64,000 bases of DNA from a virus (IMGVR_UViG_3300017960_000013); one strand, 5' to 3'; positions 5,297 to 26,257 are shown, counted from the first letter of the stretch. A program made the numbers and translations. The notes: generated by a model not told the origin, from the letters alone.

Positions 5297-5833
5297 CTAT
5301 TCCGCACGTTTGGCACTTATTTTTGAAGTTGTCAAACCACGATGCGCTGCTAACAAAATCCTTTTTATCCTTACGGCCTTGGTTCGTGACGCGCCAATCA
5401 AATCTTTGCAGTTGTTATCCAAAACCTTTCCAAACCGCTCAATATTCATCGCTAAATCATCAATCCCTTTGTTCAATTCTGCCGCAGCTTTCTTGTGTTT
5501 TACAAAAGCTTCACGTTGCTGCGCTTCTCTCTCTTTTGCTTGTTTATCTGCGCTTTTTGCTTTTCTGGCTTTTCTTCTCTTCGTTGTTTCTTTTTGCTCT
5601 TTCTCTTCTTCTGATCGTTTTTCAAAACGCTTTTTTGCTTCTTCAACCATCAAGCGCATTGGATGACCCGGAGGCAAATCATCAAGTTCTGAATGCTTGC
5701 CTTCTCTTTTTGCTCTCTCCTTTTCGATCTTTTCTTTGTCGTCCAGTTCCTTTGCAGCAGAAATAACACGCGACAAATTTCCACTTTTCAAATTTGCATG
5801 CTTGCTCATAATTTCACTCCTTGTGAGTGTCAA
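5297..5833 (-). CDS. coiled-coil hypothetical protein between terminase and portal
   Basis: 178 aa, charged and helical; overlaps the TerL stop. Confidence 0.65.
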   Translation of the reverse strand: MTLTRSEIMSKHANLKSGNLSRVISAAKELDDKEKIEKERAKREGKHSELDDLPPGHPMRLMVEEAKKRFEKRSEEEKEQKETTKRRKARKAKSADKQAKEREAQQREAFVKHKKAAAELNKGIDDLAMNIERFGKVLDNNCKDLIGASRTKAVRIKRILLAAHRGLTTSKISAKRAE

Positions 5834-7644
5834 CGATATCGCGTCCTAACTTTAGGAATTTTCCGCGTAGTAACAGTACCATGTACTTTTTCTCTGCCCA
5901 TACGAAAACGATTCATTGTTGACGTTTGCACAGCTGAGATGTTTGTTGTTCGACCAAGCACAATATTATTACCTTGCTGTTTGAAAGCACTGTACGCTTC
6001 CCAAATAGCACGGGAAACTGCATCTGAAATATCATCATGTGCTCCGCGTTTGTTTGGAGCACGTACTTGAATTTTCTTTTTGGACTTTCGTTCTGCTTCC
6101 AAAAACAAAACTTCACTGGTCATAAGGTCGTCATCGTAAACTTCAAAAAGACCATCGATGTACAAGCTTTTCCAAAGCTCATAAATCTGATCATTCAATT
6201 GATCAGTCACCTGCTTCATGTAGAACTGTTTCAACCCAGCATTGTGAAGCTGTTCAAGTAATCCAAACCCTTCGTGCTGGTCAAACCATCCACTCTTGAT
6301 TGGAAACCATCGATTGAGCCGGACAACTTCTTCTACGATTTTAGCTACTGGAATAATGTCTACATTTGCAAACCGGCGGCAATCTTTATAAATTGTCTTT
6401 TCAACTTCCCAAACATCTGATGATTTTGAATACCAAACATTGGCCCAGTCAACAACAATCTTTTTGCTTTTTACATCCTTATGAGCAATAGCAATTCCAG
6501 TTCCATCATTCTTCAATCCAAGGTCAATACCCATGAAGTAGCTAACGCCTGTTTCGCCTTTTTCTGGACGTACTTTTCCGGGAACCACACAAGCTCTGTA
6601 CTGGTCTTCATCCTCGACCCATGATGTCACTTTGTCGCTGAATTTTGCTTCATATTCTGTGGTGAATCCAATCTTGTCTCGTTTGCGCTCTGCCCTAAGC
6701 AAAGACGAATCAACCGTTGGGTTCATCATCGCGCTGTACATTTGGAACATAATAGTGTGAACGGGGTCGTGCACGCTATCGTTATACAAATCCCAAAATG
6801 CACCGTACTTTGCGTAAGGAGAACTGATACAGACCACTTTGCCATCGCCTTTGAAAGAAGCTGTCGACGGCTTCAAAGCTTTATAAACTTCACTGCCTGA
6901 AAAGCGTCCTTGGTTGTCAATAAAGAACGCCATTTCATCCATGATGATTACAATGTTGTTTCTACCGCGCAAACTATTTGACGAACATCCACCCGCCAGA
7001 CAAGTTAGACTTGCATGTTTCCGTTTTGAAAAGCCTGACTTGTCTGCGTCTGTTTGAAGATTGAAATACGTCAACGTCTGGTTAACTGAACGGTCTCTCA
7101 AGAACGGACAATTCAAAGCCTGCTTTTGAACCATGTCAAAAACGATTCCGGCTTGATCATCCGTTGGCGCAACGTTGGTAACGCAAATATTTGTCCCAGA
7201 TGGGAAGTCATAATAAATAGACGGGTCGCCCCGTTTTACAAGCTTGTAAAGTTCATAGCAAGAAATGCAAGAAGCCAATGAAGACTTTCCACCGCGTCTT
7301 CCAACTACCAAAATCAGTTCTGTAAATTTCTTTCCAGCAACCGTGTTAGTATTGCACATTCCTTCTTCATAAAGAAAATTCAAGAACTCTGTTTCGGTAA
7401 AAGTAAAAAGGATTTTGTCGTTGATGGTGTCTGGAACTTCAATGATCCGGTTCTTATCGTCCAATGGAACACCATAATAAGCTTTCAAGACAAAACGCTG
7501 AGCCGGATATAAACGAAAATTCAACCCCCACGGGGATTCAACAAACGTTATTATATCAACGACGTCAGTTGTGTTGCCAGAAAGGAATTCATCAGTCAGG
7601 CTATCGAAAATATTAGCGTTTTTACGCTTCTTATAACGGGCCAT
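5830..7644 (-). CDS. terL: terminase large subunit
   Basis: Walker A VGRRGGKS, Walker B IIMDEM, motif III ISSP, RNase H-like GIDLG...D and HDDISDA. Confidence 0.95.
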   Translation of the reverse strand: MARYKKRKNANIFDSLTDEFLSGNTTDVVDIITFVESPWGLNFRLYPAQRFVLKAYYGVPLDDKNRIIEVPDTINDKILFTFTETEFLNFLYEEGMCNTNTVAGKKFTELILVVGRRGGKSSLASCISCYELYKLVKRGDPSIYYDFPSGTNICVTNVAPTDDQAGIVFDMVQKQALNCPFLRDRSVNQTLTYFNLQTDADKSGFSKRKHASLTCLAGGCSSNSLRGRNNIVIIMDEMAFFIDNQGRFSGSEVYKALKPSTASFKGDGKVVCISSPYAKYGAFWDLYNDSVHDPVHTIMFQMYSAMMNPTVDSSLLRAERKRDKIGFTTEYEAKFSDKVTSWVEDEDQYRACVVPGKVRPEKGETGVSYFMGIDLGLKNDGTGIAIAHKDVKSKKIVVDWANVWYSKSSDVWEVEKTIYKDCRRFANVDIIPVAKIVEEVVRLNRWFPIKSGWFDQHEGFGLLEQLHNAGLKQFYMKQVTDQLNDQIYELWKSLYIDGLFEVYDDDLMTSEVLFLEAERKSKKKIQVRAPNKRGAHDDISDAVSRAIWEAYSAFKQQGNNIVLGRTTNISAVQTSTMNRFRMGREKVHGTVTTRKIPKVRTRYR

Positions 7645-8247: not shown

Positions 8248-9501
8248 TTACACCTTACCAATATCAAAGTTTGCGTCACCCAGTTCAAAATCCAAGTCCT
8301 GCGGCTTTTTGATCTTGTCCAAATCAATCTTATCGGTCCCTTCAAATTCTTTTGCCAGATGCTGCGAAGGGTCTATTTCGTCAAGTATTGCAGAATTAGA
8401 CAACTCAATTTCCAATTGAGGAACAAACTCGTTTACCTCTTGTGCTGCCTTTTGCACGATAGGTTCGTCAACATCAAACAATCCCAGCGTTGGAACATGT
8501 TCCATTTCTTCAACTTGCTGATCTGTCGATTCCAACGTCATTTTCGCCTCAAAAGGACTGCGCTTATCAGTAAGTTGAACTCCCTTCAATTCAGGTTTTG
8601 GATCGTTTCCAAACTGAACATCCATTTCAGAACGTTCCATCGTATAATCTTTTGCGTGATCTTTTGCTTTCAAGCTTGAAAACTGTTTTTCCTTTTGCGC
8701 TTTGACCCGGTTTTCAACTGCGCGCTGAAAAGCTTTTTTCAGCCTTTTGATCGGCGTCCCTTCCTGTGCTTTGATTTCTTCTGCTTCATCTTCGCTCAAA
8801 TAACCAGCATTGGAAAGATCGACCACAGAATCTCCAAGATAGTCTTCGTCAATCAATTCTTCATGAGGACCGGCAGCGAGCAAGACGGGCATATTCAATG
8901 GCTTGTAAACTATTTGGATTTCTGTCGTTTCATCTTTGCTGCTGAGCAGATCATCAATTGAGCCTTTTTTCATTGTCGTGTTCGTGGAGAAACGGCGTTC
9001 AACATGACTTGATCCTGAAACCTGTTCCGGCGTCATCAGAACAAACTTGATGAACTTCTTGAATGGAGACGTTGAAGCAGCCTTGATTCTATTCACATGA
9101 AGCTTTTCATCCCCGCGCAAATCAACAGCAACACACCCAATGATTCCTTCAAAATCCAAAAGCTGTCTTAATTCAGGAACGACATTCGCAATTGTCTCTT
9201 CCAAGAATCTGGAGCGCAATTGAAACAACAATGCTTTTCCCATGATACCCTGATTCATCAAAACACGCGCTGCTTCAACGCACGCTTCTGCGCTACGCCA
9301 AGGCAACTCAATATCCATCTCATCCTTGATAGTCGTTGGAGGACGCTTGTCGGCAGGAATATACACCGAGCTATTCCACTCGATCTCAAGATCGTCTTTC
9401 TTGTCTATGTCCTTGCCACCCTTCGGACGATACGTCTCTGGGTCGTTCAACCATTTTAGATTGGTCAGTGAAACATCTTCCATCGATGATCTGAGGTCCA
9501 T
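8248..9501 (-). CDS. hypothetical acidic protein (head-module candidate)
   Basis: Long ORF; likely start MDLRSS at 9501, behind GGAG. Confidence 0.6.
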   Translation of the reverse strand: MDLRSSMEDVSLTNLKWLNDPETYRPKGGKDIDKKDDLEIEWNSSVYIPADKRPPTTIKDEMDIELPWRSAEACVEAARVLMNQGIMGKALLFQLRSRFLEETIANVVPELRQLLDFEGIIGCVAVDLRGDEKLHVNRIKAASTSPFKKFIKFVLMTPEQVSGSSHVERRFSTNTTMKKGSIDDLLSSKDETTEIQIVYKPLNMPVLLAAGPHEELIDEDYLGDSVVDLSNAGYLSEDEAEEIKAQEGTPIKRLKKAFQRAVENRVKAQKEKQFSSLKAKDHAKDYTMERSEMDVQFGNDPKPELKGVQLTDKRSPFEAKMTLESTDQQVEEMEHVPTLGLFDVDEPIVQKAAQEVNEFVPQLEIELSNSAILDEIDPSQHLAKEFEGTDKIDLDKIKKPQDLDFELGDANFDIGKV

Positions 9502-9551
9502 TTTACTTCTCCTAAGAGATTTTCTTGAGTGCCGACAAAAACAATTCCAAC

Positions 9552-9806
9552 TCATCCACCGTTCAACTCATCTTCCGTAAGTACGTCGGTATCGAAAATG
9601 GGTTCGATATGCTGACCATCTTCACTAACGCGCCAAAGCGCCTGCGTTGTCCGATGAATCAAAAGCTTGCTATCGTCTGTTGAGATAAACATATTGCGAG
9701 CATTCTTTGTGTTTGGCACTCTGGTATAAAATCGTTTATGACCATCAACGCTTTGATCGATTCCAATTGCGCTGTGCCAAACGAAGTCATCGAAAAAGTC
9801 TCTCAT
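9552..9806 (-). CDS. small hypothetical protein
   Basis: 84 aa with a GGAGG-like RBS upstream. Confidence 0.6.
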   Translation of the reverse strand: MRDFFDDFVWHSAIGIDQSVDGHKRFYTRVPNTKNARNMFISTDDSKLLIHRTTQALWRVSEDGQHIEPIFDTDVLTEDELNGG

Positions 9807-9873
9807 GAGTACGTTCCCTCCGCTAAGTCAGAACCACAGCCTGTCTATATAACCTTAAAATATAAAAAAATTT

Positions 9874-10449
9874 TTACGATTTCCAGACCGTGTGATCTTT
9901 GTAGACACGCTTGACCTTGTTCTTGTTACGTCGAACTGCGGAAAAAATCTCGTATGCTTCCCAGTGTTTCAGCCTTCTCATTCGTCGCAATGCTTTGTCA
10001 AATAAGCCTCTTACAAAGATTTGCGACAGACCAAGAACCCTTGCGGTCAAGGTAAAGGAAGTGGTGTAATACATCAAAACAAGAATTTCTATTGTTTGAG
10101 GATCATACTTGCGATTTCTTTGCTCAATGAAGTTTGTGAAAATATCGAAGGCTTGTCTCAAATATGCGATGAATTGAATCCGTTCTCTGATACGACGTAT
10201 ATCATAGCAAAGCGATGGTTGACTTCGCTTTAGGACTCTCTGTACTTCCTTCTGCTTCTTTTTTGAAACGAAAATGAGATACAAAATGTCCCTGTCTTTA
10301 TCGTTCAAAAGATTAAAAATCGAGCGATTACTTGTAATTTCATCGATGTCAAAATGAAAACTTCTGCTTGAACGAACCTTTCTCGGTTGCTCAATGTAGT
10401 CGCTAACGTATTTTATTCGCACAGATTTTTCTCCTATCTCCAATATCAA
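9874..10449 (-). CDS. sigma70 region 4-like HTH transcription regulator
   Basis: LNDKDRDILYLIF..KKQKEVQRVLKRSQPSLCYDIRRIRERI matches the sigma-4 HTH pattern; a second HTH-like segment follows. Confidence 0.6.
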   Translation of the reverse strand: MILEIGEKSVRIKYVSDYIEQPRKVRSSRSFHFDIDEITSNRSIFNLLNDKDRDILYLIFVSKKKQKEVQRVLKRSQPSLCYDIRRIRERIQFIAYLRQAFDIFTNFIEQRNRKYDPQTIEILVLMYYTTSFTLTARVLGLSQIFVRGLFDKALRRMRRLKHWEAYEIFSAVRRNKNKVKRVYKDHTVWKS

Positions 10450-11032
10450 TTGCAGTTGAAATCATGTTTTCTGTCAATTTTTTCCCTTTTTCCACAACTG
10501 GGAATTGAACATAATTCCAAAGGCAATCGCAAATTTCTAAATTTACTTGCCGCAAACTTTCTACAAATTGCCGCGTATAAAGACGAAAGAAAACATTGTA
10601 ACTGTTTTTCCCATTCTTCTTTACCACAATCCCAAACAGGTTTTTCAAAAACCCTGCTTTGACTCGAACCAAATCTCCTATGGAGACATCATCTTTGCTT
10701 TTGATTCTCCACTTTGTAGTCCGCTCAAAACGCGAAATTGAAGAATACGCAACTGGAGAAGGATTCTCTACGGAAGGCAAAACAATAGAAACTACAGAAC
10801 TGTTTTTGATTTCATCTGTATGGTTTTGATAATTGGAACACTTGACAAAAAAATAGCTTTCCGATTGAATCTTGAAACAATCATCAGCCATCCGTTCGCC
10901 GGGAAGTATCAAATCGCAAAAATCATCTGCAAACACCCGCCCCATTTCCTTGAACAAAAAAGACTCAAGGTCTTCCAAGCCACGGGTTTTTTGCCCGTCA
11001 AGGAGAAAACAATACCATTGACGTTTAGCCAT
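10403..11032 (-). CDS. NusG-like transcription antitermination factor
   Basis: N-terminal QWYC (NGN-like start) and C-terminal KOW motif IGDLVRVKAGFLKNLFGIV. Confidence 0.75.
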   Translation of the reverse strand: MAKRQWYCFLLDGQKTRGLEDLESFLFKEMGRVFADDFCDLILPGERMADDCFKIQSESYFFVKCSNYQNHTDEIKNSSVVSIVLPSVENPSPVAYSSISRFERTTKWRIKSKDDVSIGDLVRVKAGFLKNLFGIVVKKNGKNSYNVFFRLYTRQFVESLRQVNLEICDCLWNYVQFPVVEKGKKLTENMISTAIDIGDRRKICANKIR

Positions 11033-11470
11033 TTATCTTTTTGTAAATAACGACCAAAAGCATTCCCTCAAATGATATTGAAAGCGTTCCCACCTGCTCT
11101 GTCCTTCGTTGGGTATTTGCTGCAAAAACCAAAGCAGCACTGCAAGCTTTGGATATTTTTTGCCGCAAATCGAAGGGCTTTTTAGTTCATCATGAAACTT
11201 ACGTGTGATTGATTCTTCTATATGTAAGCATTGATATTCAGAACAAGCTTTTGCACTTTCCGCATCATTACAAATTCGCATGGAATGCTTCGTCTTAGAA
11301 AGAATTTTTGGATTGAGACAAAAACCGATAAACCCGTTGCCTTTTACTTTGTACCGCGTATTATATCGACAGTTCCTATAATCGCAAGACAAAAATTCCT
11401 TCTTTTTCTTGCGTAACTCTCGCTCGTACAACTCATCAAACCGTTCCCGAACCTTCTCTTCCGTTTGCAT
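11033..11470 (-). CDS. Cys-rich hypothetical protein
   Basis: Several Cys clusters; likely start MQTEE. Confidence 0.55.
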   Translation of the reverse strand: MQTEEKVRERFDELYERELRKKKKEFLSCDYRNCRYNTRYKVKGNGFIGFCLNPKILSKTKHSMRICNDAESAKACSEYQCLHIEESITRKFHDELKSPSICGKKYPKLAVLLWFLQQIPNEGQSRWERFQYHLRECFWSLFTKR

Positions 11471-14929: not shown

Positions 14930-16012
14930 CTATCCTTTCGGAAGTCCTTTCAGATAGCCTTCCTTATCCGATGCGACCATGAAATCCTTGACGCCACCCT
15001 TTTCGATAATCTCCTTCAATTGCTCTTCAAAGCAGAAGTACAACCGGATAACGCCTCCGGCTTTGTCCTGCCATCCTTCAAGCCCGAGATCATCAGGAGA
15101 TAAATCTTGCCGTATCTGCGCTCCTGCGCCAACACTGACGTCTTTGCTTTTCTTTGGCGTTGGGGCTTCAGATTGGCCGCTGATACTACTCCGCAAAGCA
15201 TTGCAATTCACTTTTCCGCTTGTCTTCTCTTCAATTTGAGACACATGAAAAACGTTAACACTCTGTGGGGCAATCAATCCTTTGGACAGCTGATCCCCAG
15301 AAAGGCAGATTGTACTGCTATCGTACGTCTGGTGATCCGACGAGTTGCTTGTCGTGTAAACCATTTGCCCGCCATAGCCACTAAACCCCCGCGTGATTCG
15401 TTGCGGTGGCGTTCTTGAAACTTTGGGCTTGTAAAATGCAAAACCAAAAGCTGGTACGGTGTTTTCTTTTCCAATTACCGCACTGGCAATATCTCGCTTG
15501 TCTTCATCGGTGAAAAAGAATTGCCGTACCGTTCCATCCGGTTGCCTGAATCCATCCCACCAAAGCGTATTGGGATGACAAACGTAATTTTGCGGTGGCC
15601 AAGAGTAGTTGCATTCCTCACAAAAATAGCCATGCGAAAAAGGCTTGTCATGAACAGGACACTTGTCAGCATACTGCTCCAACCCCAAACCTTCAAGCTT
15701 GCGTCCGGTGATAGGATTCATTCCTTTGACGCTGGGAACAATTGTCGTGTTCATTGCATCATTCATCGTCCAATCAAACCACAATCCCCATCCGACATCA
15801 ATAGGACAAACATACGCCCCTGCTTCGCGTACCCAAGAATCCGGTGCGCCGGGCAATGCGGCAATTGGGAAAACGGGAATGGGTTGACCGGGAGGGAGAC
15901 CGTGAACCTGTTCACCTTCAAGACGCTCTGCCTTCATCAATCTTGCCTTGAAGCTGGCATGTTCCATTTCATGAACATAACCACCTTTGGCAAGTTCTTT
16001 TACGTAATCCAT
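14930..16012 (-). CDS. hypothetical protein
   Basis: 360 aa, AAAGGA RBS, internal Cys/His cluster. Confidence 0.7.
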   Translation of the reverse strand: MDYVKELAKGGYVHEMEHASFKARLMKAERLEGEQVHGLPPGQPIPVFPIAALPGAPDSWVREAGAYVCPIDVGWGLWFDWTMNDAMNTTIVPSVKGMNPITGRKLEGLGLEQYADKCPVHDKPFSHGYFCEECNYSWPPQNYVCHPNTLWWDGFRQPDGTVRQFFFTDEDKRDIASAVIGKENTVPAFGFAFYKPKVSRTPPQRITRGFSGYGGQMVYTTSNSSDHQTYDSSTICLSGDQLSKGLIAPQSVNVFHVSQIEEKTSGKVNCNALRSSISGQSEAPTPKKSKDVSVGAGAQIRQDLSPDDLGLEGWQDKAGGVIRLYFCFEEQLKEIIEKGGVKDFMVASDKEGYLKGLPKG

Positions 16013-16078: not shown

Positions 16079-17140
16079 TTAGAAACGCTGTTTCTGGTTC
16101 GGGTTCATCGGGTCCGCATATTGACGCCCTGATGTATCCGACATTCTCACTTTCAGATTTGGCAGAGAGTCAACTTCCTTCCGCTCATCAAAGACGAGCG
16201 CCACATGAGGATAGTTCAACCGCAAACCTTCCAAACCGCCTTGAACAGCAAGACCAATGAATTGGCGAATATCAGGAGTCCTGCTTGTGATCTCCTCCAA
16301 TTCAAGAGCAATGCGGGCAAACTGCATACATTCGTAATCAATTCCTTCCCAGACCTGCTTTGACTTGTCACAGAATCCATCCACAAGCAATGTATCTTTG
16401 TGGAAAGGACAGTGAAAATAAAACATCGCAGGAAATTCGCCAGCACGATAAAGCCGCTTCAAACTGTCGGCGACTTTGTAATTGACAGGCATTGTACGGC
16501 CACGGCGAGCTTCCCGCAACATTCTGAGCGTCGTTTCAACGTCCACAACGGCATCTTCTCTGTTGTTGAAAACAACAAAAGGACGATCATTGCTTCGCCT
16601 TTTAAGCTCGTCAATGATTGAGACCTCACATTCAGGACCGTAAGCTTCAACAAGTTCCTTGTCCTTCATTTGTCCCGGCGTACGGAGCGTTTCCTTCAAG
16701 CCCTGACTGAACTTTTCAAAGCCGCTGCTCAATTCCTTATAAGCAACGTCTGTCGTGGGCGCGGTTCTTTCTGTAAGGATAGCCCAGACACGTCTGAATC
16801 GAACCGCAGGCAGATATGGAGAGCCGCCAGTTTCGCAGAAAACACGTCTCGCTTCTCCCTCTGGACAATCAACCATTAACAACTCATGCGATTCAGCATC
16901 CCTGTAAACTCCAAGCAGGCCAAGTTTGTCCCAGATGTGCTTTGCGGCAAGTTTCTTCCGCTCTTCATCTGAGGCTTTGATAATAAAATTGGGAATGCCC
17001 AAAACGATATGAGCTGCTTCGTTGACTTTTGATTCAAGTTTTTCAACAGTAAATTTATTCGCAGACATGATTTGTTCCTTTCGCTCACTTGCAACCTTGT
17101 TATCGGTCGCGGATTCGTTAGCTTTTGTATCTGTCAACAT
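16079..17140 (-). CDS. hypothetical protein
   Basis: 353 aa; alternative start MSANK at 17068 behind AAGGA. Confidence 0.7.
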   Translation of the reverse strand: MLTDTKANESATDNKVASERKEQIMSANKFTVEKLESKVNEAAHIVLGIPNFIIKASDEERKKLAAKHIWDKLGLLGVYRDAESHELLMVDCPEGEARRVFCETGGSPYLPAVRFRRVWAILTERTAPTTDVAYKELSSGFEKFSQGLKETLRTPGQMKDKELVEAYGPECEVSIIDELKRRSNDRPFVVFNNREDAVVDVETTLRMLREARRGRTMPVNYKVADSLKRLYRAGEFPAMFYFHCPFHKDTLLVDGFCDKSKQVWEGIDYECMQFARIALELEEITSRTPDIRQFIGLAVQGGLEGLRLNYPHVALVFDERKEVDSLPNLKVRMSDTSGRQYADPMNPNQKQRF

Positions 17141-17237: not shown

Positions 17238-17265
17238 ATTATACAACCCAGAGATATTTTTTCAA
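17238..17265 (-). promoter_or_regulatory. sigma70-type promoter
   Basis: TTGAAA-N16-TATAAT, with TG immediately upstream of the -10, in an intergenic gap. Confidence 0.7.
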
Positions 17266-17288: not shown

Positions 17289-18539
17289 TCAAGCCTTTGA
17301 TGAGTCGTAATCGTAGATCAGATTTCCATTCGCATCTGCGTCTGGTCTTGGTTTTAAGATTCCTTCGTACATATAGTAAGGGCTTTGTCCTGCATTTGGA
17401 TTATTCCACAACCAACGCATATAATCCTTGCAAGTATGATTCACAAATGATGCTGCTTTTTCCGCCGAGCCGCGATTCATTCCAATATTCAAACGCCAAA
17501 GGAACGTATCTGCATAAGCCAAGTGAGGATCAATATCATCCCACGTAACATAGCCACGTTTCTTTGCAATCATCAACGCTTCGCACCATTGTCCTTTGGA
17601 ATAACTTCCGGGCCAATCAGCAGGCAGTCCACAACAAGAACCATTATCGCAACGCTCTTTGAAATGAGCATCACTTACATAAAAGCGCATTCCTGCTTCG
17701 CGTGCCGCCTTTTGCATTTCATCGACATAAGGTCGCTTTGTGTTTCTGTTCAAACGCATATAGCCCTGATTGTATGAATTCTTTACATAGTATTTCCAAA
17801 CATCAAAGCCAGCGCACTCACTCATTATTTTTAGACGTTCGCGCAAAATCATTGAACGCCTTTCACAACAAAAAAATTCTGTAGACACGGCCCCAGCGCC
17901 ACGTTTGCCAGATTCTTTGATAAGTTCAATATGACCATTGTTGTGATTCGTAATCCCAATAATGAAAGGTCGCAATCGCAAAGTCGCGCCACCGCAATTC
18001 AAAGCAGTAATCTTTTCAAGGGCTTTAAGTCTTTCTTTTGTCGTAGGAACTCCCGGCTCAATTTTCTTTACAAAATCTTCATTTGTCATGATGATGCTGA
18101 CTTTTACGTTCCAATTCTTTTGACCTTTGAATAGTTCCGTATAGCGAGGATCATCGAGCCACCAAACGCCCTTTGTGCTAAGGCACAATGGATAGTTTAT
18201 TGCCTTGAAAAACCGTAACAACTCTAATCCAACGCCATACTTCTTTTCAAAATTACAAAACGGATCAGACAACGAACCCCATTGCATTGTCTTACCCATT
18301 CTAATAAATGGCCCAAATTGAGATTTTTCTGGATCGCAGAAATGTTTAACTACGCTTTCAATCTTAACAGGCTTGACCCTTTTTGCTAAGTAATTTTCTT
18401 TCCCGTCTCCAACGGCTCGCTGAAACGTACTGAAGCAATATAAACAGCCATATGAACAATTTGAATATTGATCAAACGTCATCGGCATCGAGCAATCGGC
18501 AATTTCTGACGTCCACCTTGGTGCTTGATAATAATCCAT
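17289..18539 (-). CDS. radical SAM protein (spore-photoproduct-lyase-like family)
   Basis: CSYGCLYC CxxxCxxC motif, GSLSDPF, STKG. Confidence 0.85.
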   Translation of the reverse strand: MDYYQAPRWTSEIADCSMPMTFDQYSNCSYGCLYCFSTFQRAVGDGKENYLAKRVKPVKIESVVKHFCDPEKSQFGPFIRMGKTMQWGSLSDPFCNFEKKYGVGLELLRFFKAINYPLCLSTKGVWWLDDPRYTELFKGQKNWNVKVSIIMTNEDFVKKIEPGVPTTKERLKALEKITALNCGGATLRLRPFIIGITNHNNGHIELIKESGKRGAGAVSTEFFCCERRSMILRERLKIMSECAGFDVWKYYVKNSYNQGYMRLNRNTKRPYVDEMQKAAREAGMRFYVSDAHFKERCDNGSCCGLPADWPGSYSKGQWCEALMIAKKRGYVTWDDIDPHLAYADTFLWRLNIGMNRGSAEKAASFVNHTCKDYMRWLWNNPNAGQSPYYMYEGILKPRPDADANGNLIYDYDSSKA

Positions 18540-18548
18540 AACGCGTCC

Positions 18549-19157
18549 TTATAGCACTTGCCAAATATTCTTGAAACCTTCTGCTAACACCGCCCCACAC
18601 ATTGCTCCTCTTACACGCGCAAGCCCAAAAATCGCTTCTGCGCGACAGTACAATTTGTTTGCTTGCGTATGATAATGTTTTATGGCTTTTACTTTCCTTT
18701 CAACATCTTCCTTCTCTACCTCAACAAACACATCCGCTGCAAAAGAGAAATTACTTCTCAAAATTTCATAACCCCAAAGCGTTGTCCCTTTGAAAGCACG
18801 CTTTGCTTCTTCCAAACTTACTTGATGGTCTTGATGTAAGTCGTCTGGCGCTGGCGTAAAAACGACATCTAAATCCAATGTATCACGAGCACGTTCAAAC
18901 GTGCGCAAGATACCAGCTCTTGACGACCAAAGATCGCGATGAGGAAAATTCAAAAGCTTTATATTCTCTTCCAAACCAAGTTCTTTTGCAGCCGCTTGAA
19001 CTTCTGGTTCAATATCAAATTCGCTCCGATCAGTCAATGTTAATATTGATACCTTACAGCCATTCCGTATTAATTTGGAAATAGTTGCCCCGCAACCTAA
19101 TTCTGCATCGTCAGGATGGGGCGCAATGACTAAAACAGAATTCATTGGTTGGACCAT
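18549..19157 (-). CDS. PIG-L/LmbE family N-deacetylase
   Basis: APHPDDAELGCG and HQDHQ motifs. Confidence 0.9.
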   Translation of the reverse strand: MVQPMNSVLVIAPHPDDAELGCGATISKLIRNGCKVSILTLTDRSEFDIEPEVQAAAKELGLEENIKLLNFPHRDLWSSRAGILRTFERARDTLDLDVVFTPAPDDLHQDHQVSLEEAKRAFKGTTLWGYEILRSNFSFAADVFVEVEKEDVERKVKAIKHYHTQANKLYCRAEAIFGLARVRGAMCGAVLAEGFKNIWQVL

Positions 19158-19912
19158 TCTTTCGGCACCCTCATCGTAAATTCATATGGAGAACTTGCGC
19201 GATTTCTTTTTGGGATAAGAAGACCTTTCCATTTATTCATCATGTAATTATACACTTCTTCTTCCAATCCGGATTTCTTCCACGTATCCATACAACCGCC
19301 TGCTGCCTTGCGATAGGTGTAGTCAGACCAAAGATAATCTAAACGTAAAACCCGACGTCCGCTGACTGCACATTGAAGCGTATAATCATAATCCTGTTTT
19401 ACCCTGCATTTTTCATCAAACATCAATTCGCAACGCTTGATAATCATGCAATGACCTTCAACAAACGTGTTAATCGAATGCGGACGCTCTGGACGATAGT
19501 AAAATTCATTGGCCGTTGGAGATTCTCCAATGAGATAAAATCCACTTTTCTCTGCAAGATCAATAGCGTTAAACCATTCGTTCATGTGTTGCTTTGACGA
19601 CCATTTGACCTTTTTCTTTTTGTCACCATCTGCTGTAAAATATCCAACGACCTTTATATCGTCATCAAGTTGGATTACCCAATCACCCATACTTATCTTT
19701 CGCATGATAATATTTCTGATTGGCGTAAGCCCGCCATCTTCAGTATGAGTCTCAATTTTTGCATTTGGTAAATGCTTTTTGTATTCCTCCAATTCGCGTT
19801 CATGAACAAATACCGTTGCGTCTGGGAACAAATTCCAAGTTGTCCCAGCTTCCGCTCGTTCTTTAGATGGGATTACAATAGAAACTTTCTTCCCGCTTTT
19901 TGTTTCATACAT
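19142..19912 (-). CDS. GT-A fold glycosyltransferase (GREB1/TET-associated-like)
   Basis: IVIPSKER, QLDDDIK (DxD-like), KQDYDYTLQ, AAGGC. Confidence 0.75.
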   Translation of the reverse strand: MYETKSGKKVSIVIPSKERAEAGTTWNLFPDATVFVHERELEEYKKHLPNAKIETHTEDGGLTPIRNIIMRKISMGDWVIQLDDDIKVVGYFTADGDKKKKVKWSSKQHMNEWFNAIDLAEKSGFYLIGESPTANEFYYRPERPHSINTFVEGHCMIIKRCELMFDEKCRVKQDYDYTLQCAVSGRRVLRLDYLWSDYTYRKAAGGCMDTWKKSGLEEEVYNYMMNKWKGLLIPKRNRASSPYEFTMRVPKEWSNQ

Positions 19913-19915
19913 GGA

Positions 19916-20608
19916 TCACCTGTTAACTTCGTCAACATCTGAAGGAACATAGACGACCTTATCGCCTTTGATACCCAACCGCTTCATCCAAAAGCTTTTC
20001 TCTTCATCAGTTGTGTAGGTAAGCAAAAAACGTCCTGCTCTGTCGTCAACGCCTTGAATATCAAGTTTAGGTGGGCCTTGTACTTTTTCATCGTCGGACG
20101 ATCCAGAAGAGTCTCCTGACAATTCTGTAGTTGGAATTTGAGATATTTCGCCCGAATCAATTTGAGGCATTTCCAATTGGATTTCGTCAAACCCGAGATT
20201 TTCAGAAATGACCGGCATATCAACTTTGATAGACTTCAATATAGCATCAAGCTTTGTTCTATCCCACGACCCAGCGGCTTTGTCGTTGTTTAAGCTTACG
20301 TTCAAAGCTTTTTCTTTAGCCGAGTTTGGTTCAACCTCAACCCATGTGATGTCGTCAGGATGAATCCAGTCCTGACCCAAATTTTTAAGAGCCTTTATGC
20401 GTTGGTGCCCGCCAATAATACGATTCCCTTGTCTGTTCACGGTGATCGTTGACGTCAATCGAAAGCCCTCACCACGTTCATCTTCTGGAATGGTATCAGT
20501 GTGTTCCTTGATTGAAGCTTTTAAGTTTTCCAGTTCTTCACTCCCAATTATCCTTGGGTTGTAATCAACAACGTTGAGTGATGTCAAGCCAATCTTTTTT
20601 GTGCTCAT
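19916..20608 (-). CDS. ParB/Srx N-terminal domain protein
   Basis: YNPRII, IIGGHQRIKAL, LNVSLNN. Confidence 0.85.
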   Translation of the reverse strand: MSTKKIGLTSLNVVDYNPRIIGSEELENLKASIKEHTDTIPEDERGEGFRLTSTITVNRQGNRIIGGHQRIKALKNLGQDWIHPDDITWVEVEPNSAKEKALNVSLNNDKAAGSWDRTKLDAILKSIKVDMPVISENLGFDEIQLEMPQIDSGEISQIPTTELSGDSSGSSDDEKVQGPPKLDIQGVDDRAGRFLLTYTTDEEKSFWMKRLGIKGDKVVYVPSDVDEVNR

Positions 20609-20619
20609 AATTTCCTCCG

Positions 20620-21420
20620 TTAAGGCGCATCGTTAAAGCGTTCGCAAACAATCGTGAGCGCATCAGCACTCGTTTTCGCACTATATGTTTCTTTCGCCTT
20701 TTTGATGGCGGCTAAAATTTTTTGCCGTTGTTCTGCCGTCACCGCATACGACAGAGGGTAAAGTTGCGGCATATCCGACGGAACAACGGCTTTACCATCT
20801 GTCTCTTCCAATGGCTCTTCCAAAGCAGGACCATCTTCAAAAATGGGTTCTAAGTTGAATTCTGGTTTCCCCTCTGGCTCGTCCTTTCCAGATTTCTCGG
20901 GTTCCTTCTGCGGCAACATTTCTGCTACATCTACGTTTACTTTTTCAAGTTCAATATACGGCAAATCAAGTTTCTCATATAACGCTTCATCGTCAATTTT
21001 GATTCCCCGCAAAAGTTCATCAAGCTTTGGCTGATTCCAAAAACCTCCATAGCGTTCACTATTGAGCGTTATGTTCAAAGACTTTTCTTTAGAGCTATCC
21101 GGTTTAACGTCTACCCAAGTTATATCTTTGACGTGAATCCAATCCTGTCCTAACGACTTCAACGCTTTTATTCGTTGGTGTCCGCCAACAATACGATTCC
21201 CATTGACGTTGACCGTAACAGTGGTAGTCAGCCGGTAACCTTCGCCTCTTGTCTTCTTGGGAATAGCCTTGGTATGTTCTTTTATCGACGCCTTCAGACG
21301 TTCCAATTCTATATCGGTGATTAGGCGTGGATTGTAGGACAACGCCTGAAGCGTATCCAACGATACTTTCGTTTTCATATTTCCTCTGTCGAGAGAGATA
21401 CTTGTCTCAACAATACGCAA
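20620..21420 (-). CDS. ParB/Srx N-terminal domain protein (paralog of the downstream gene)
   Basis: YNPRLI, IVGGHQRIKAL, LNITLNS; likely start MKTK near 21378. Confidence 0.85.
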   Translation of the reverse strand: MRIVETSISLDRGNMKTKVSLDTLQALSYNPRLITDIELERLKASIKEHTKAIPKKTRGEGYRLTTTVTVNVNGNRIVGGHQRIKALKSLGQDWIHVKDITWVDVKPDSSKEKSLNITLNSERYGGFWNQPKLDELLRGIKIDDEALYEKLDLPYIELEKVNVDVAEMLPQKEPEKSGKDEPEGKPEFNLEPIFEDGPALEEPLEETDGKAVVPSDMPQLYPLSYAVTAEQRQKILAAIKKAKETYSAKTSADALTIVCERFNDAP

Positions 21421-21430
21421 ATATAAAATT

Positions 21431-21458
21431 ATTATATGGTTTTCGGGAAGAAAATCAA
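21431..21458 (-). promoter_or_regulatory. sigma70-type promoter ahead of the ParB/GT/PIG-L/rSAM cassette
   Basis: TTGATT-N16-TATAAT on the minus strand. Confidence 0.6.
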
Positions 21459-21467
21459 GAAAAAAAT

Positions 21468-22042
21468 TTAGCGTTTGTTAATTGGCGTGAATTCTCGCGT
21501 GGACAGATGAGCTTTGATTTGATCAAACGAGACCGGAGTGAAATCCCAAGCATCTACACCTACATCGCACGAAAGTGAATCCTTTGGCTCCTCCAAAGTG
21601 CCGTGAGTGTGTCCGTAACAATGCCAAGAGCCAAAATGAGATTTGTCCCAAACCCGCATAGCATAGTGACATAGAATGATTTCTTGATCATTGATCTTGA
21701 TACGCCTCAAATCACGCTTTTCTGAAAATCCATTTGCGCGTCTGACTGCTTGGCGATCATGGTTCCCGTAGATCAAACAAACATTTCCGTTCAAACGCTT
21801 GAGGTAACGCTCAACATCGGCAGGGTATCTGCCCCAACAAAAATCTCCCAAGTGCCAAACAATATCTCCCGCTTTGACGACTTTGTTCCAATTCTCAATA
21901 ATCGCCTCGTCCATTTCTTTCGCCGACGCAAAAGGACGGTTGCAATATTTTCGGATATTATCGTGCCCAAAATTCAGTGGGTGTCCGCAGTAAGCCACAC
22001 TTCCGTAGCTCTGCGAACACCCGTATTCTCCTTTGCATTCAT
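21468..22042 (-). pseudogene. calcineurin-like metallophosphoesterase split by an in-frame TGA and frameshift at the first motif (pseudogene, recoded gene or sequence error)
   Basis: ATG at 22042 reads ...EVWLTADTH-stop; FGHDNI, LGDF, GNHD, CHY and GHTHG continue in another frame 5 nt later. Confidence 0.7.
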
Positions 22043-25642: not shown

Positions 25643-26257
25643 TCATTTTTGCGTGAAAAATTTGCTCGAATCAAAAACACTGTTGGTCCCCACCAAAACG
25701 AAGTGCGTTCCGTGAAAATCAAATTCCTTGTCATAATGATGATGCGCAAATACCCAAAGCTTCGGTTGATGAATTTCAAACATCATCTGAAACGCCTTCG
25801 TAGTTGGATTCAGATGGTCTGAAGTACATGCCCGTATCTGTCCAAGTACTTTCGCCGGGCATTCGTGCGTAGCAACGAAATCTGGCCTATTGGCCTCGTA
25901 AAGCTCAAGGCAATCTGAAAACTGACTGTAGGTAAGCTCTTCGCCTTTCCACCAACTCACGCCGGGAATACGCCGGTCTTTGTCAATGGAATAAGCACCG
26001 CTCACGAAAAACCAGACTTCTTTATTGAGTTGGGCGCTCCCAAAATTACCCAAGTAATTCGGATACGTTTCGCAACCCGTCGGATCATCGTGATTCCCGC
26101 GAATGAATTTATGAGGCGACGGTGTAGCAAGAATTTCTTCGCCACGCCTATCGAAACCAACGCCCATATCTCCAAGCTGAATTGAATACGGCAATTTCTT
26201 GATAATACCTTCGTAGGTATTAAATTCGCCGTGAATGTCGCCAATGAAAAACATCAC
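25643..26257 (-). CDS. metallophosphoesterase (calcineurin-like)
   Basis: GDIHG, LGDMG, RGNHD, HECP, AHHH. Confidence 0.85.
   Translation of the reverse strand: MMFFIGDIHGEFNTYEGIIKKLPYSIQLGDMGVGFDRRGEEILATPSPHKFIRGNHDDPTGCETYPNYLGNFGSAQLNKEVWFFVSGAYSIDKDRRIPGVSWWKGEELTYSQFSDCLELYEANRPDFVATHECPAKVLGQIRACTSDHLNPTTKAFQMMFEIHQPKLWVFAHHHYDKEFDFHGTHFVLVGTNSVFDSSKFFTQK

Follow-up and report, generated by a model that had tools for sequence, protein, structure and literature searches.

Five adjoining genes, discussed here as a candidate operon for DNA-base hypermodification, lie in a 64,000-nt stretch of DNA from the virus IMGVR_UViG_3300017960_000013 (the whole stretch is hereafter called the window). 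The source is an uncultivated huge phage, the 64-kb window is coded almost wholly on the minus strand, and contigs of up to 338 kb carry a radical SAM protein identical to that of the window. The five minus-strand genes lie within 17289-21420 and encode, in this order, two ParB-like proteins (ParB1 and ParB2), a TET-associated glycosyltransferase (TAGT), a PIG-L deacetylase and a radical SAM enzyme (rSAM); the first two junctions leave 11 and 3 nt between the genes, TAGT and PIG-L overlap by 16 nt, and 9 nt separate PIG-L from rSAM. An earlier reading of the window (hereafter the original prediction) had described five contiguous, coupled genes, which is borne out, as all the open reading frames exist with junctions of -16 to +11 nt. 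Its domain calls (two ParB N-terminal domains, glycosyltransferase, PIG-L and radical SAM) are likewise confirmed by profile and fold matches.

The rSAM gene (17289..18539, minus strand) encodes 416 aa and resembles spore photoproduct lyase (SPL). Its CX3CX2C cluster motif, CSYGCLYC, is formed by C28, C32 and C35, of which C35 is invariant in the family while C28 and C32 are kept in at least 90% of the members. The Pfam Radical_SAM model is matched below its threshold (22.5 vs 29.5 bits). The AF2 model of the protein (pLDDT 91) has its best structural match in SPL (Foldseek E 1.5e-8; VIA-align Z 20.0 and a root-mean-square deviation of 2.9 Å over 258 residues), and the next radical SAM structure by VIA (Z 15.9) falls about 4 Z units short of it. 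SPL was not among the matches at E<=1 when the rSAM profile (a hidden Markov model, HMM) was compared with the sequences of the PDB, and the kinship is seen by fold comparison only. A weak kinship exists to the PA0069/Rv2578c proteins (COG1533, "SplB-like"), but the protein falls outside the equivalogs NF033668 and NF038135, whose cut-offs (360 and 430 bits) far exceed its score of 41 bits. Residues from about 290 to 416 form a family-specific C-terminal domain with a conserved Cys-Cys pair, C302/C303. The hydrogen-atom relay of SPL comprises Cys140 and Tyr98 (Geobacillus thermodenitrificans enzyme), and SPL chemistry passes through a thymine C5-methyl radical in DNA. At the one relay position that was compared, directly after the third cluster Cys, the rSAM family has an invariant Phe where SPL has the relay Tyr. 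Remote homology to gp53 of Pseudomonas phage M6 is indicated by hhalign (94.7% probability, 20% identity over 232 columns).

The rSAM family was delimited by searching 1.84 billion representatives with a profile built from 30 homologues (E<=1e-30); it is phage-borne and falls into 360 clusters when grouped at 50% identity. The family has no BLAST-level relative in 50,697 deposited phage genomes. No near-identical DNA or protein occurs there at E<=1e-5, and at E<=5 there are just four weak fragments (~22-23% identity) from human-faecal phage contigs. Several homologues are labelled "DNA repair photolyase" in JGI/IMG, and literature and full-text searches returned no paper in which this family is connected with TAGT or with the hydroxylation of thymine.

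The genomic surroundings of the family were surveyed with local HMMs in 46 IMG/VR loci that possess an rSAM homologue of 29-60% identity. A ParB-like gene is found near rSAM in about 32 of the 46 loci, mostly immediately upstream, and the pair of ParB and rSAM is the minimal conserved unit (e.g., L020-L022). TAGT-like genes are present in about 20 loci and glycosyltransferases of any kind, including GT-B and GT2 types, in about 25. Genes of thymidine hypermodification are likewise among the neighbours: amino-acid:DNA transferase (AADT, PF18724), a P-loop kinase of the type acting on 5-hydroxymethyldeoxyuridine (5-hmdU; PF18751), and GATase. Further neighbours are SPASM and B12 radical SAM enzymes and SAM synthetase, as well as DNA polymerase, primase and terminase. 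In three related loci (L006, L008 and L009) TET/JBP stands beside rSAM in the order ParB-TET-ParB-rSAM-TAGT-rSAM.

Physical fusions of rSAM to its partners are frequent. TAGT-rSAM and rSAM-TAGT fusions are found in at least 8 clusters of the 50%-identity representatives (among them P0003, P0004, P0026, P0011, P0012, P0016 and P0020). P0013 joins a P-loop kinase3, rSAM and TAGT in one protein, whose gene follows an AADT gene, and further fusions link rSAM to GT-B (P0007) and to an FkbM methyltransferase (P0008). The fusion proteins must have arisen independently.

Several other features of these loci deserve mention. About 11 rSAM representatives contain inteins, most of them at or just past the CX3CX2C motif (L043/L044 at ~8779-11227; P0006, P0020, P0021, P0024, P0031, P0061, P0067, P0068); some bear LAGLIDADG or HNH-like endonuclease domains, and P0067 has two inteins. 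In L034 and L036 (match 10001-11260) tblastn spans the whole rSAM (41% identity, E 8e-84), yet under code 11 no intact rSAM-matching reading frame of 70 aa or more is called; these contigs could have a frameshift or an insertion, or use an alternative genetic code. A second, divergent SPL-like paralogue (cluster c85) occurs in L019 (12685-14121, minus strand) and L031 (6934-8274). Two families located between ParB and TAGT were considered as oxygenases and rejected. The first, c36, joins a HAD-like phosphatase N-domain to a weak APH-type kinase (L011:1229-2314, L014:1379-2458, L018:7593-8825), in which the phosphatase domain matches the "phosphoheptose isomerase" and PNK phosphatase PHROGs; this fusion probably activates a sugar and supplies it, possibly in a heptose-like form. 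The second, c8 (~300 aa, sometimes in two copies), is found in L023-L026 and L045 (L023:4189-5055, L023:5882-6808, L024:7128-8042, L045:8025-8987) and has no match in Pfam or PHROGs. It reached a probability of just 0.2% in hhalign against the TET of L006 and has no HxD motif; we take its conserved segment RFYE..G.P..D to be reminiscent of GT-B enzymes.

ParB1 is a ParB/Srx N-terminal-domain protein of 252 aa (20620..21378, minus strand; PHROG ParB families, E 3e-15). The mechanically called reading frame, 20620-21420, begins with TTG at 21420; the ATG at 21378 is probably the true start, since it is preceded by the ribosome-binding site AGAGGAAA and the same gene call is made on contigs with an identical locus. 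ParB2 is encoded at 19916..20608 (minus strand; PHROG ParB matches, E 1e-18 to 1e-19). While both proteins match PHROG ParB families in the range of E 1e-15 to 1e-19, the Pfam ParB model matches neither at E<=0.01. A profile of 28 members of this ParB family matches Noc/ParB/Spo0J structures in the PDB (E 3e-17) and, more weakly, sulfiredoxin and serine kinase. The two paralogues share 56% identity up to residue 151, beyond which they are unrelated; the C-terminal domain that is usual in rSAM-adjacent ParBs is present in ParB2 and absent from ParB1. In the AF2 model of ParB2 a confident N-terminal ParB domain, with fold matches to ParB, Noc and KorB, leads into a few short helices, beyond which a disordered linker connects to a small C-terminal domain, and no helix-turn-helix DNA-binding domain is seen. 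Where an arginine patch GERRxRA would be expected, both paralogues have GGHQRIKA. Without this patch, and with a model that has no central helix-turn-helix domain for parS binding, they differ from the ParB of chromosome segregation, which is a CTPase clamp.

The TAGT gene (19142..19912, minus strand) encodes a GT-A-like protein, predicted to transfer N-acetylhexosamine (HexNAc) to the modified base. It matches PF20691 (E 1.4e-12, 48.4 bits with a cut-off of 27.5, model positions 2-195 of 205) and phrog_842 (E 1e-20) and has the metal/donor DDD motif within IQLDDDI. What defines the TAGT family is that its members occur in association with DNA-base oxygenases. The PIG-L gene (18549..19157, minus strand) overlaps the TAGT stop by 16 nt and encodes a PIG-L/LmbE-family zinc de-N-acetylase (PF02585, E 9e-18, 65.4 bits with a cut-off of 28.2) with intact zinc and catalytic motifs, APHPDD at residues 12-17 and DDLHQDH at residues 104-110. 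Its nearest named relatives are BshB and LmbE (BshB1-like, E 3e-17; LmbE/BshB also in the PDB), but its score is far under the BshB/MshB equivalog cut-offs (63 vs 182 bits), and it therefore does not count as their orthologue.

Enzymes of the PIG-L family act directly after a GlcNAc transferase in several pathways, namely PIG-A/PIG-L in glycosylphosphatidylinositol synthesis, MshA/MshB in mycothiol synthesis and BshA/BshB in bacillithiol synthesis. The complete 61.6-kb phage L015 has an overlapping pair of TAGT and PIG-L in the same order, adjoining rSAM, and its PIG-L retains the motifs at 24% identity to that of the window. The intact motifs, the gene overlap and the recurrence in L015 make it plausible, and on balance probable, that transfer of HexNAc is followed by deacetylation, and thus support the original prediction, in which an N-acetyl sugar was added and then deacetylated. 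Alongside the rSAM family PIG-L is rare, being present in 2 of 47 loci (the window counted as the 47th) and in 2 of 20 rSAM-bearing phage records that were searched as a whole, 8 of which are at least 90% complete; we interpret it therefore as the distinguishing add-on of this operon. A pattern search of IMG/VR found no relatives of this PIG-L.

The embedding of the rSAM family in phage DNA-hypermodification genes, and its fusion to them, makes it highly probable that the enzymes encoded here act on DNA. The original prediction had named a base as the target, with a virion protein as the alternative, and the linkage or fusion of the family to ParB, TAGT, GT-B, 5-hmdU-kinase-like, AADT, GATase and TET/JBP genes supports DNA over a protein or a glycan of the cell surface. 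The absence of a C5-methyltransferase and of TET suggests that the modified base is probably thymine.

To our knowledge, the characterised routes to hypermodified pyrimidines in phages begin either with a hydroxymethylase of the thymidylate-synthase type before replication or with an oxygen-dependent TET/JBP enzyme after it. Neither a hydroxymethylase nor TET/JBP had been noticed in the window by the original prediction, and a scan of ~85 of its open reading frames agrees, as none of these matches TET/JBP (PF12851), a thymidylate-synthase-type enzyme, a C5-methyltransferase, AADT or a P-loop kinase. The picture is similar in the 20 rSAM-bearing records: a hydroxymethylase of the thymidylate-synthase type (PF00303) is present in none of them, Tet_JBP (PF12851) in two and a C5-methyltransferase (PF00145) in one. 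Six of the eight near-complete genomes possess genes that use a handle on the base, and a known maker of such a handle is found in just one of these six. In particular, G002 (100% complete) has ParB, GATase, AADT, kinase and rSAM genes, but neither TET nor thymidylate synthase.

In a quick maximum-likelihood tree of rSAM the glycosyltransferase-type and the AADT/kinase-type contexts are intermixed (12 changes vs a shuffled mean of 14.5). The window rSAM is ~57% identical to members of both contexts, and identities of 45-60% are retained across clusters of quite different downstream chemistry. We interpret this as an indication that the rSAM step is common to both types of pathway and takes place early. 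The conserved core of ParB and rSAM, the varied downstream chemistry and the complete genomes that possess handle-users without a known handle-maker point in the same direction. The indifference of rSAM to the appended group, together with its SPL-like fold, makes the initiating role our leading reading, although we rate it slightly below an even chance. The original prediction had assigned to rSAM a last, "further modification" step, which is probably wrong, as rSAM and ParB form the conserved core of the module. More tentatively still, the SPL-like rSAM and ParB may together be an oxygen-independent activator of the thymine C5-methyl group, an anaerobic counterpart of TET/JBP on duplex DNA. 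They would then produce 5-hydroxymethyluracil, or else an electrophilic or hydroxylated handle equivalent to it, and in this phage supply a pathway whose end product is a positively charged thymine that bears hexosamine.

The pathway as a whole might then proceed as follows. The two ParB-like proteins would serve as DNA-loading or activator partners, a role that ParB has for the ParB-dependent thymine dioxygenases of phages. The rSAM would act on duplex DNA at the C5-methyl of a pyrimidine, probably thymine, and by way of a 5-thymidyl radical create the handle for the glycosyltransferase, a 5-hydroxymethyl group or an equivalent activated methylene, thus standing in for TET/JBP without the need for oxygen. 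TAGT would move HexNAc from a host nucleotide sugar onto this handle, and PIG-L would strip the acetyl group and leave a cationic hexosamine on the base. The expected product is a nucleobase of the 5-(hexosaminyl-oxymethyl)uracil type, with a nucleoside of ~419 u that would be reached via a HexNAc intermediate of 461 u. We consider it an evenly balanced proposition that the operon constitutes such a post-replicative hypermodification pathway of a huge phage, started by ParB and rSAM and ending in an amino sugar.

However, we also have to consider that rSAM is a late tailoring enzyme within a DNA-hypermodification pathway, with the hydroxymethylated base provided from outside the window. TAGT and PIG-L would in this case build the amino sugar, and rSAM would then rearrange or alter the appended group, e.g. 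by O-to-C migration, dehydration of the sugar or epimerisation. Several observations speak for such a role or weigh against an initiating rSAM. M6 gp53, the only relative to have been characterised, works as a tailoring isomerase rather than as an initiator (PMC8989533), and in the operon rSAM comes last. No auxiliary Fe-S cluster is evident, as the only conserved Cys residues beyond the SAM cluster are C16, C302 and C303, which leaves no clear acceptor for the electron that a hydroxylation needs to pass on. TET/JBP and rSAM are not strictly exclusive, since L006, L008 and L009 have both. The contig may extend to 338 kb, of which the window covers 64 kb, so that most of the genome is unseen and a hydroxymethylase or a 5mYOX (a phage thymine dioxygenase) could lie elsewhere. 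ThyX (PF02511) is present in 4-5 of the 20 records; it is so far known as a normal dTMP synthase, but a handle-maker derived from it is conceivable. Some divergent 5mYOXs are moreover missed by Pfam (PMC13229309). Two points weigh against the proposed pathway more generally: the identity of the sugar is read solely from the presence of PIG-L, and we infer the chemistry of every step, including the exact reaction of rSAM, from sequence.

Nevertheless, an enzyme that recognises one appended group would ill fit the identity of 45-60% that rSAM maintains whether its context is one of sugars, of amino-acid transferases or of neither. A late role is likewise difficult to reconcile with ParB and rSAM as the minimal conserved pair, and with the five of six near-complete, handle-using genomes that have no maker of the thymidylate-synthase or TET/JBP type. 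We therefore regard late tailoring as rather unlikely, and an initiating rSAM as the more likely of the two.

A target other than DNA, be it a virion protein, a glycan of the host cell envelope or a small molecule, with the ParBs as unrelated partition proteins or nucleases, appears improbable. Enzymes of the PIG-L and GT-A types usually act on lipids, thiols and glycans, and the PIG-L of the window is closest to BshB/LmbE, both of which would suit such a target. By contrast, the association with DNA-base oxygenases by which TAGT is defined, the SPL-like rSAM that is fused to or adjoins 5-hmdU-kinase-like and AADT genes, and ParB as the most constant neighbour in modules that lie amid replication and packaging genes all argue for DNA. 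That rSAM is a true DNA-repair lyase in a chance mix of repair, partition and sugar genes, as its SPL-like fold and the JGI/IMG name of its homologues might suggest, is hardly credible in view of its fusions to glycosyltransferases and a kinase, which arose independently more than once, the synteny with ParB and glycosyltransferases across 46 loci, the Phe in place of the relay Tyr, and a C-terminal domain of 125 residues outside the aligned SPL core.

Comparison with known systems shows both parallels and differences. Phage thymine dioxygenases (5mYOX, clade C1 of TET/JBP) have glycosyltransferase, ParB, kinase, AADT, GATase and terminase genes as neighbours, and ParB is the activator that 5mYOX needs on duplex DNA (O'Toole et al., PNAS 2026, PMC13229309). 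As in these ParB-dependent clusters, the putative base-activating enzyme has as its neighbour a ParB that combines an N-terminal domain of the nucleotide-binding type with a C-terminal domain and lacks one for DNA binding; ParB2 has this architecture, whereas ParB1 shares the N-terminal domain and has another C-terminus. Shared features are also the handle-using downstream partners (TAGT here; kinase, AADT and GATase family-wide) and the setting near replication and terminase genes, and post-replicative action would be a further one. Unlike those clusters, however, neither the five genes nor their flanks nor any of the ~85 window reading frames scanned match PF12851, and an SPL-like rSAM is found in that position; two ParB paralogues with differing C-termini and an added PIG-L are further distinctions.

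Other phage clusters combine TET/5mYOX with glycosyltransferases and place hexose, HexNAc or heptose on 5-hydroxymethylcytosine (Burke 2021, PMC8256090; Pyle et al. 2023, bioRxiv 10.1101/2023.12.21.572611). The TAGT/GT-A-type glycosyltransferase is common to them and to the window, it acts there on a hydroxymethyl pyrimidine in DNA, and HexNAc bases are documented for them; the lack of a C5-methyltransferase and of TET sets the window apart. The de-N-acetylase of the operon described here is a further difference; the word "deacetylase" is absent from the preprint of Pyle et al. 2023, which mentions no rSAM partner either.

M6 gp53, an N-alpha-glycinylthymine isomerase, is the only rSAM known in DNA hypermodification (Lee et al., NAR 2022, PMC8989533). 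It is SPL-like, as is the window rSAM, and acts on the position of thymine in DNA that derives from the C5-methyl. Its gene lies between those for AADT, a pyridoxal-phosphate (PLP) decarboxylase and 5-HMUDK, in a phage that makes 5-hmdU by a dUMP hydroxymethylase (PMC8989533). None of these partners (AADT, PLP decarboxylase, 5-HMUDK, dUMP hydroxymethylase) was found among the window reading frames scanned, and in contrast to gp53 the rSAM family of the window has its own C-terminal domain with the Cys-Cys motif as well as ParB and glycosyltransferase partners. With SPL (SplB; PDB 4FHC/4FHF), an enzyme that works on DNA, rSAM shares the placement of CX3CX2C besides the fold, but differs by an identity of only 13-15%, the Phe after the third cluster Cys, the extra C-terminal domain and the fusions to transferases. 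The AHPDD and HxDH motifs of PIG-L are those of the PIG-A/PIG-L, MshA/MshB and BshA/BshB pathways, and here the PIG-L gene directly follows and overlaps the glycosyltransferase gene; its substrate, by contrast, would be a sugar on a DNA base.

The operon is bracketed by two promoter-like elements. The TTGATT-N16-TATAAT promoter claimed by the original prediction is present at 21431..21458 (minus strand, i.e. 21458-21431), within the 47-nt gap that precedes ParB1, as a candidate sigma-70-like element that agrees with the consensus at 10 of 12 positions. A second element, TTGAAA-N16-TATAAT (11 of 12), lies at 17238..17265 (minus strand) in the 148-nt gap past the rSAM stop, where it delimits the unit on its downstream side and precedes two unannotated genes. 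Both are sequence matches only, and such matches are overall not enriched in the window (13 vs 8.5 +/- 2.9 in shuffles); the two best on the minus strand are nevertheless those in the two intergenic gaps bracketing the operon. The two genes downstream of the operon, 16079-17140 and 14930-16012, have no match in Pfam, PHROGs or NCBIfam. Upstream of the 47-nt gap lies a gene for a calcineurin-like phosphoesterase (21468-21998), and a second such gene is found at 25643-26257; calls of the former vary among contigs that share this locus in identical form, with 148 aa in L048 and 176 aa in L049. A protein of 604 aa encoded at 5830-7644, ~9.6 kb downstream of the operon, has weak matches to the ATPase of the terminase large subunit (E 1e-4), and in smaller phages the module of ParB, rSAM and glycosyltransferase often abuts the terminase. 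Among the small-protein genes of the window (24-64 kb) there is a match to the rubrerythrin family (E 1.7e-10). Rubrerythrins are typical of anaerobes, and this match may be taken as a faint hint to the lifestyle of the host.

The new parts of this operon are the PIG-L step and its setting in a huge phage. The position of the rSAM family in the place of TET/JBP and its fusion to glycosyltransferases and kinases that need a handle point to a third entry to DNA hypermodification, which is radical and probably oxygen-free. Such a route, if true, would show by what means phages with anaerobic hosts modify their DNA. An initiating rSAM would be a categorically new enzyme with a reaction type new to rSAM enzymology, and a possible tool for the oxygen-free, site-selective functionalisation of thymine. 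The principle of ParB as the activator of a DNA-modifying enzyme would likewise reach beyond the dioxygenases. The PIG-L step predicts a cationic sugar with a free amine on the DNA and thus a new member of the cationic modifications. These (putrescinyl-T, aminoethyl-dU and similar) block restriction and neutralise charge for packaging, and the neutralisation of charge would be relevant to a genome of ~340 kb or more.

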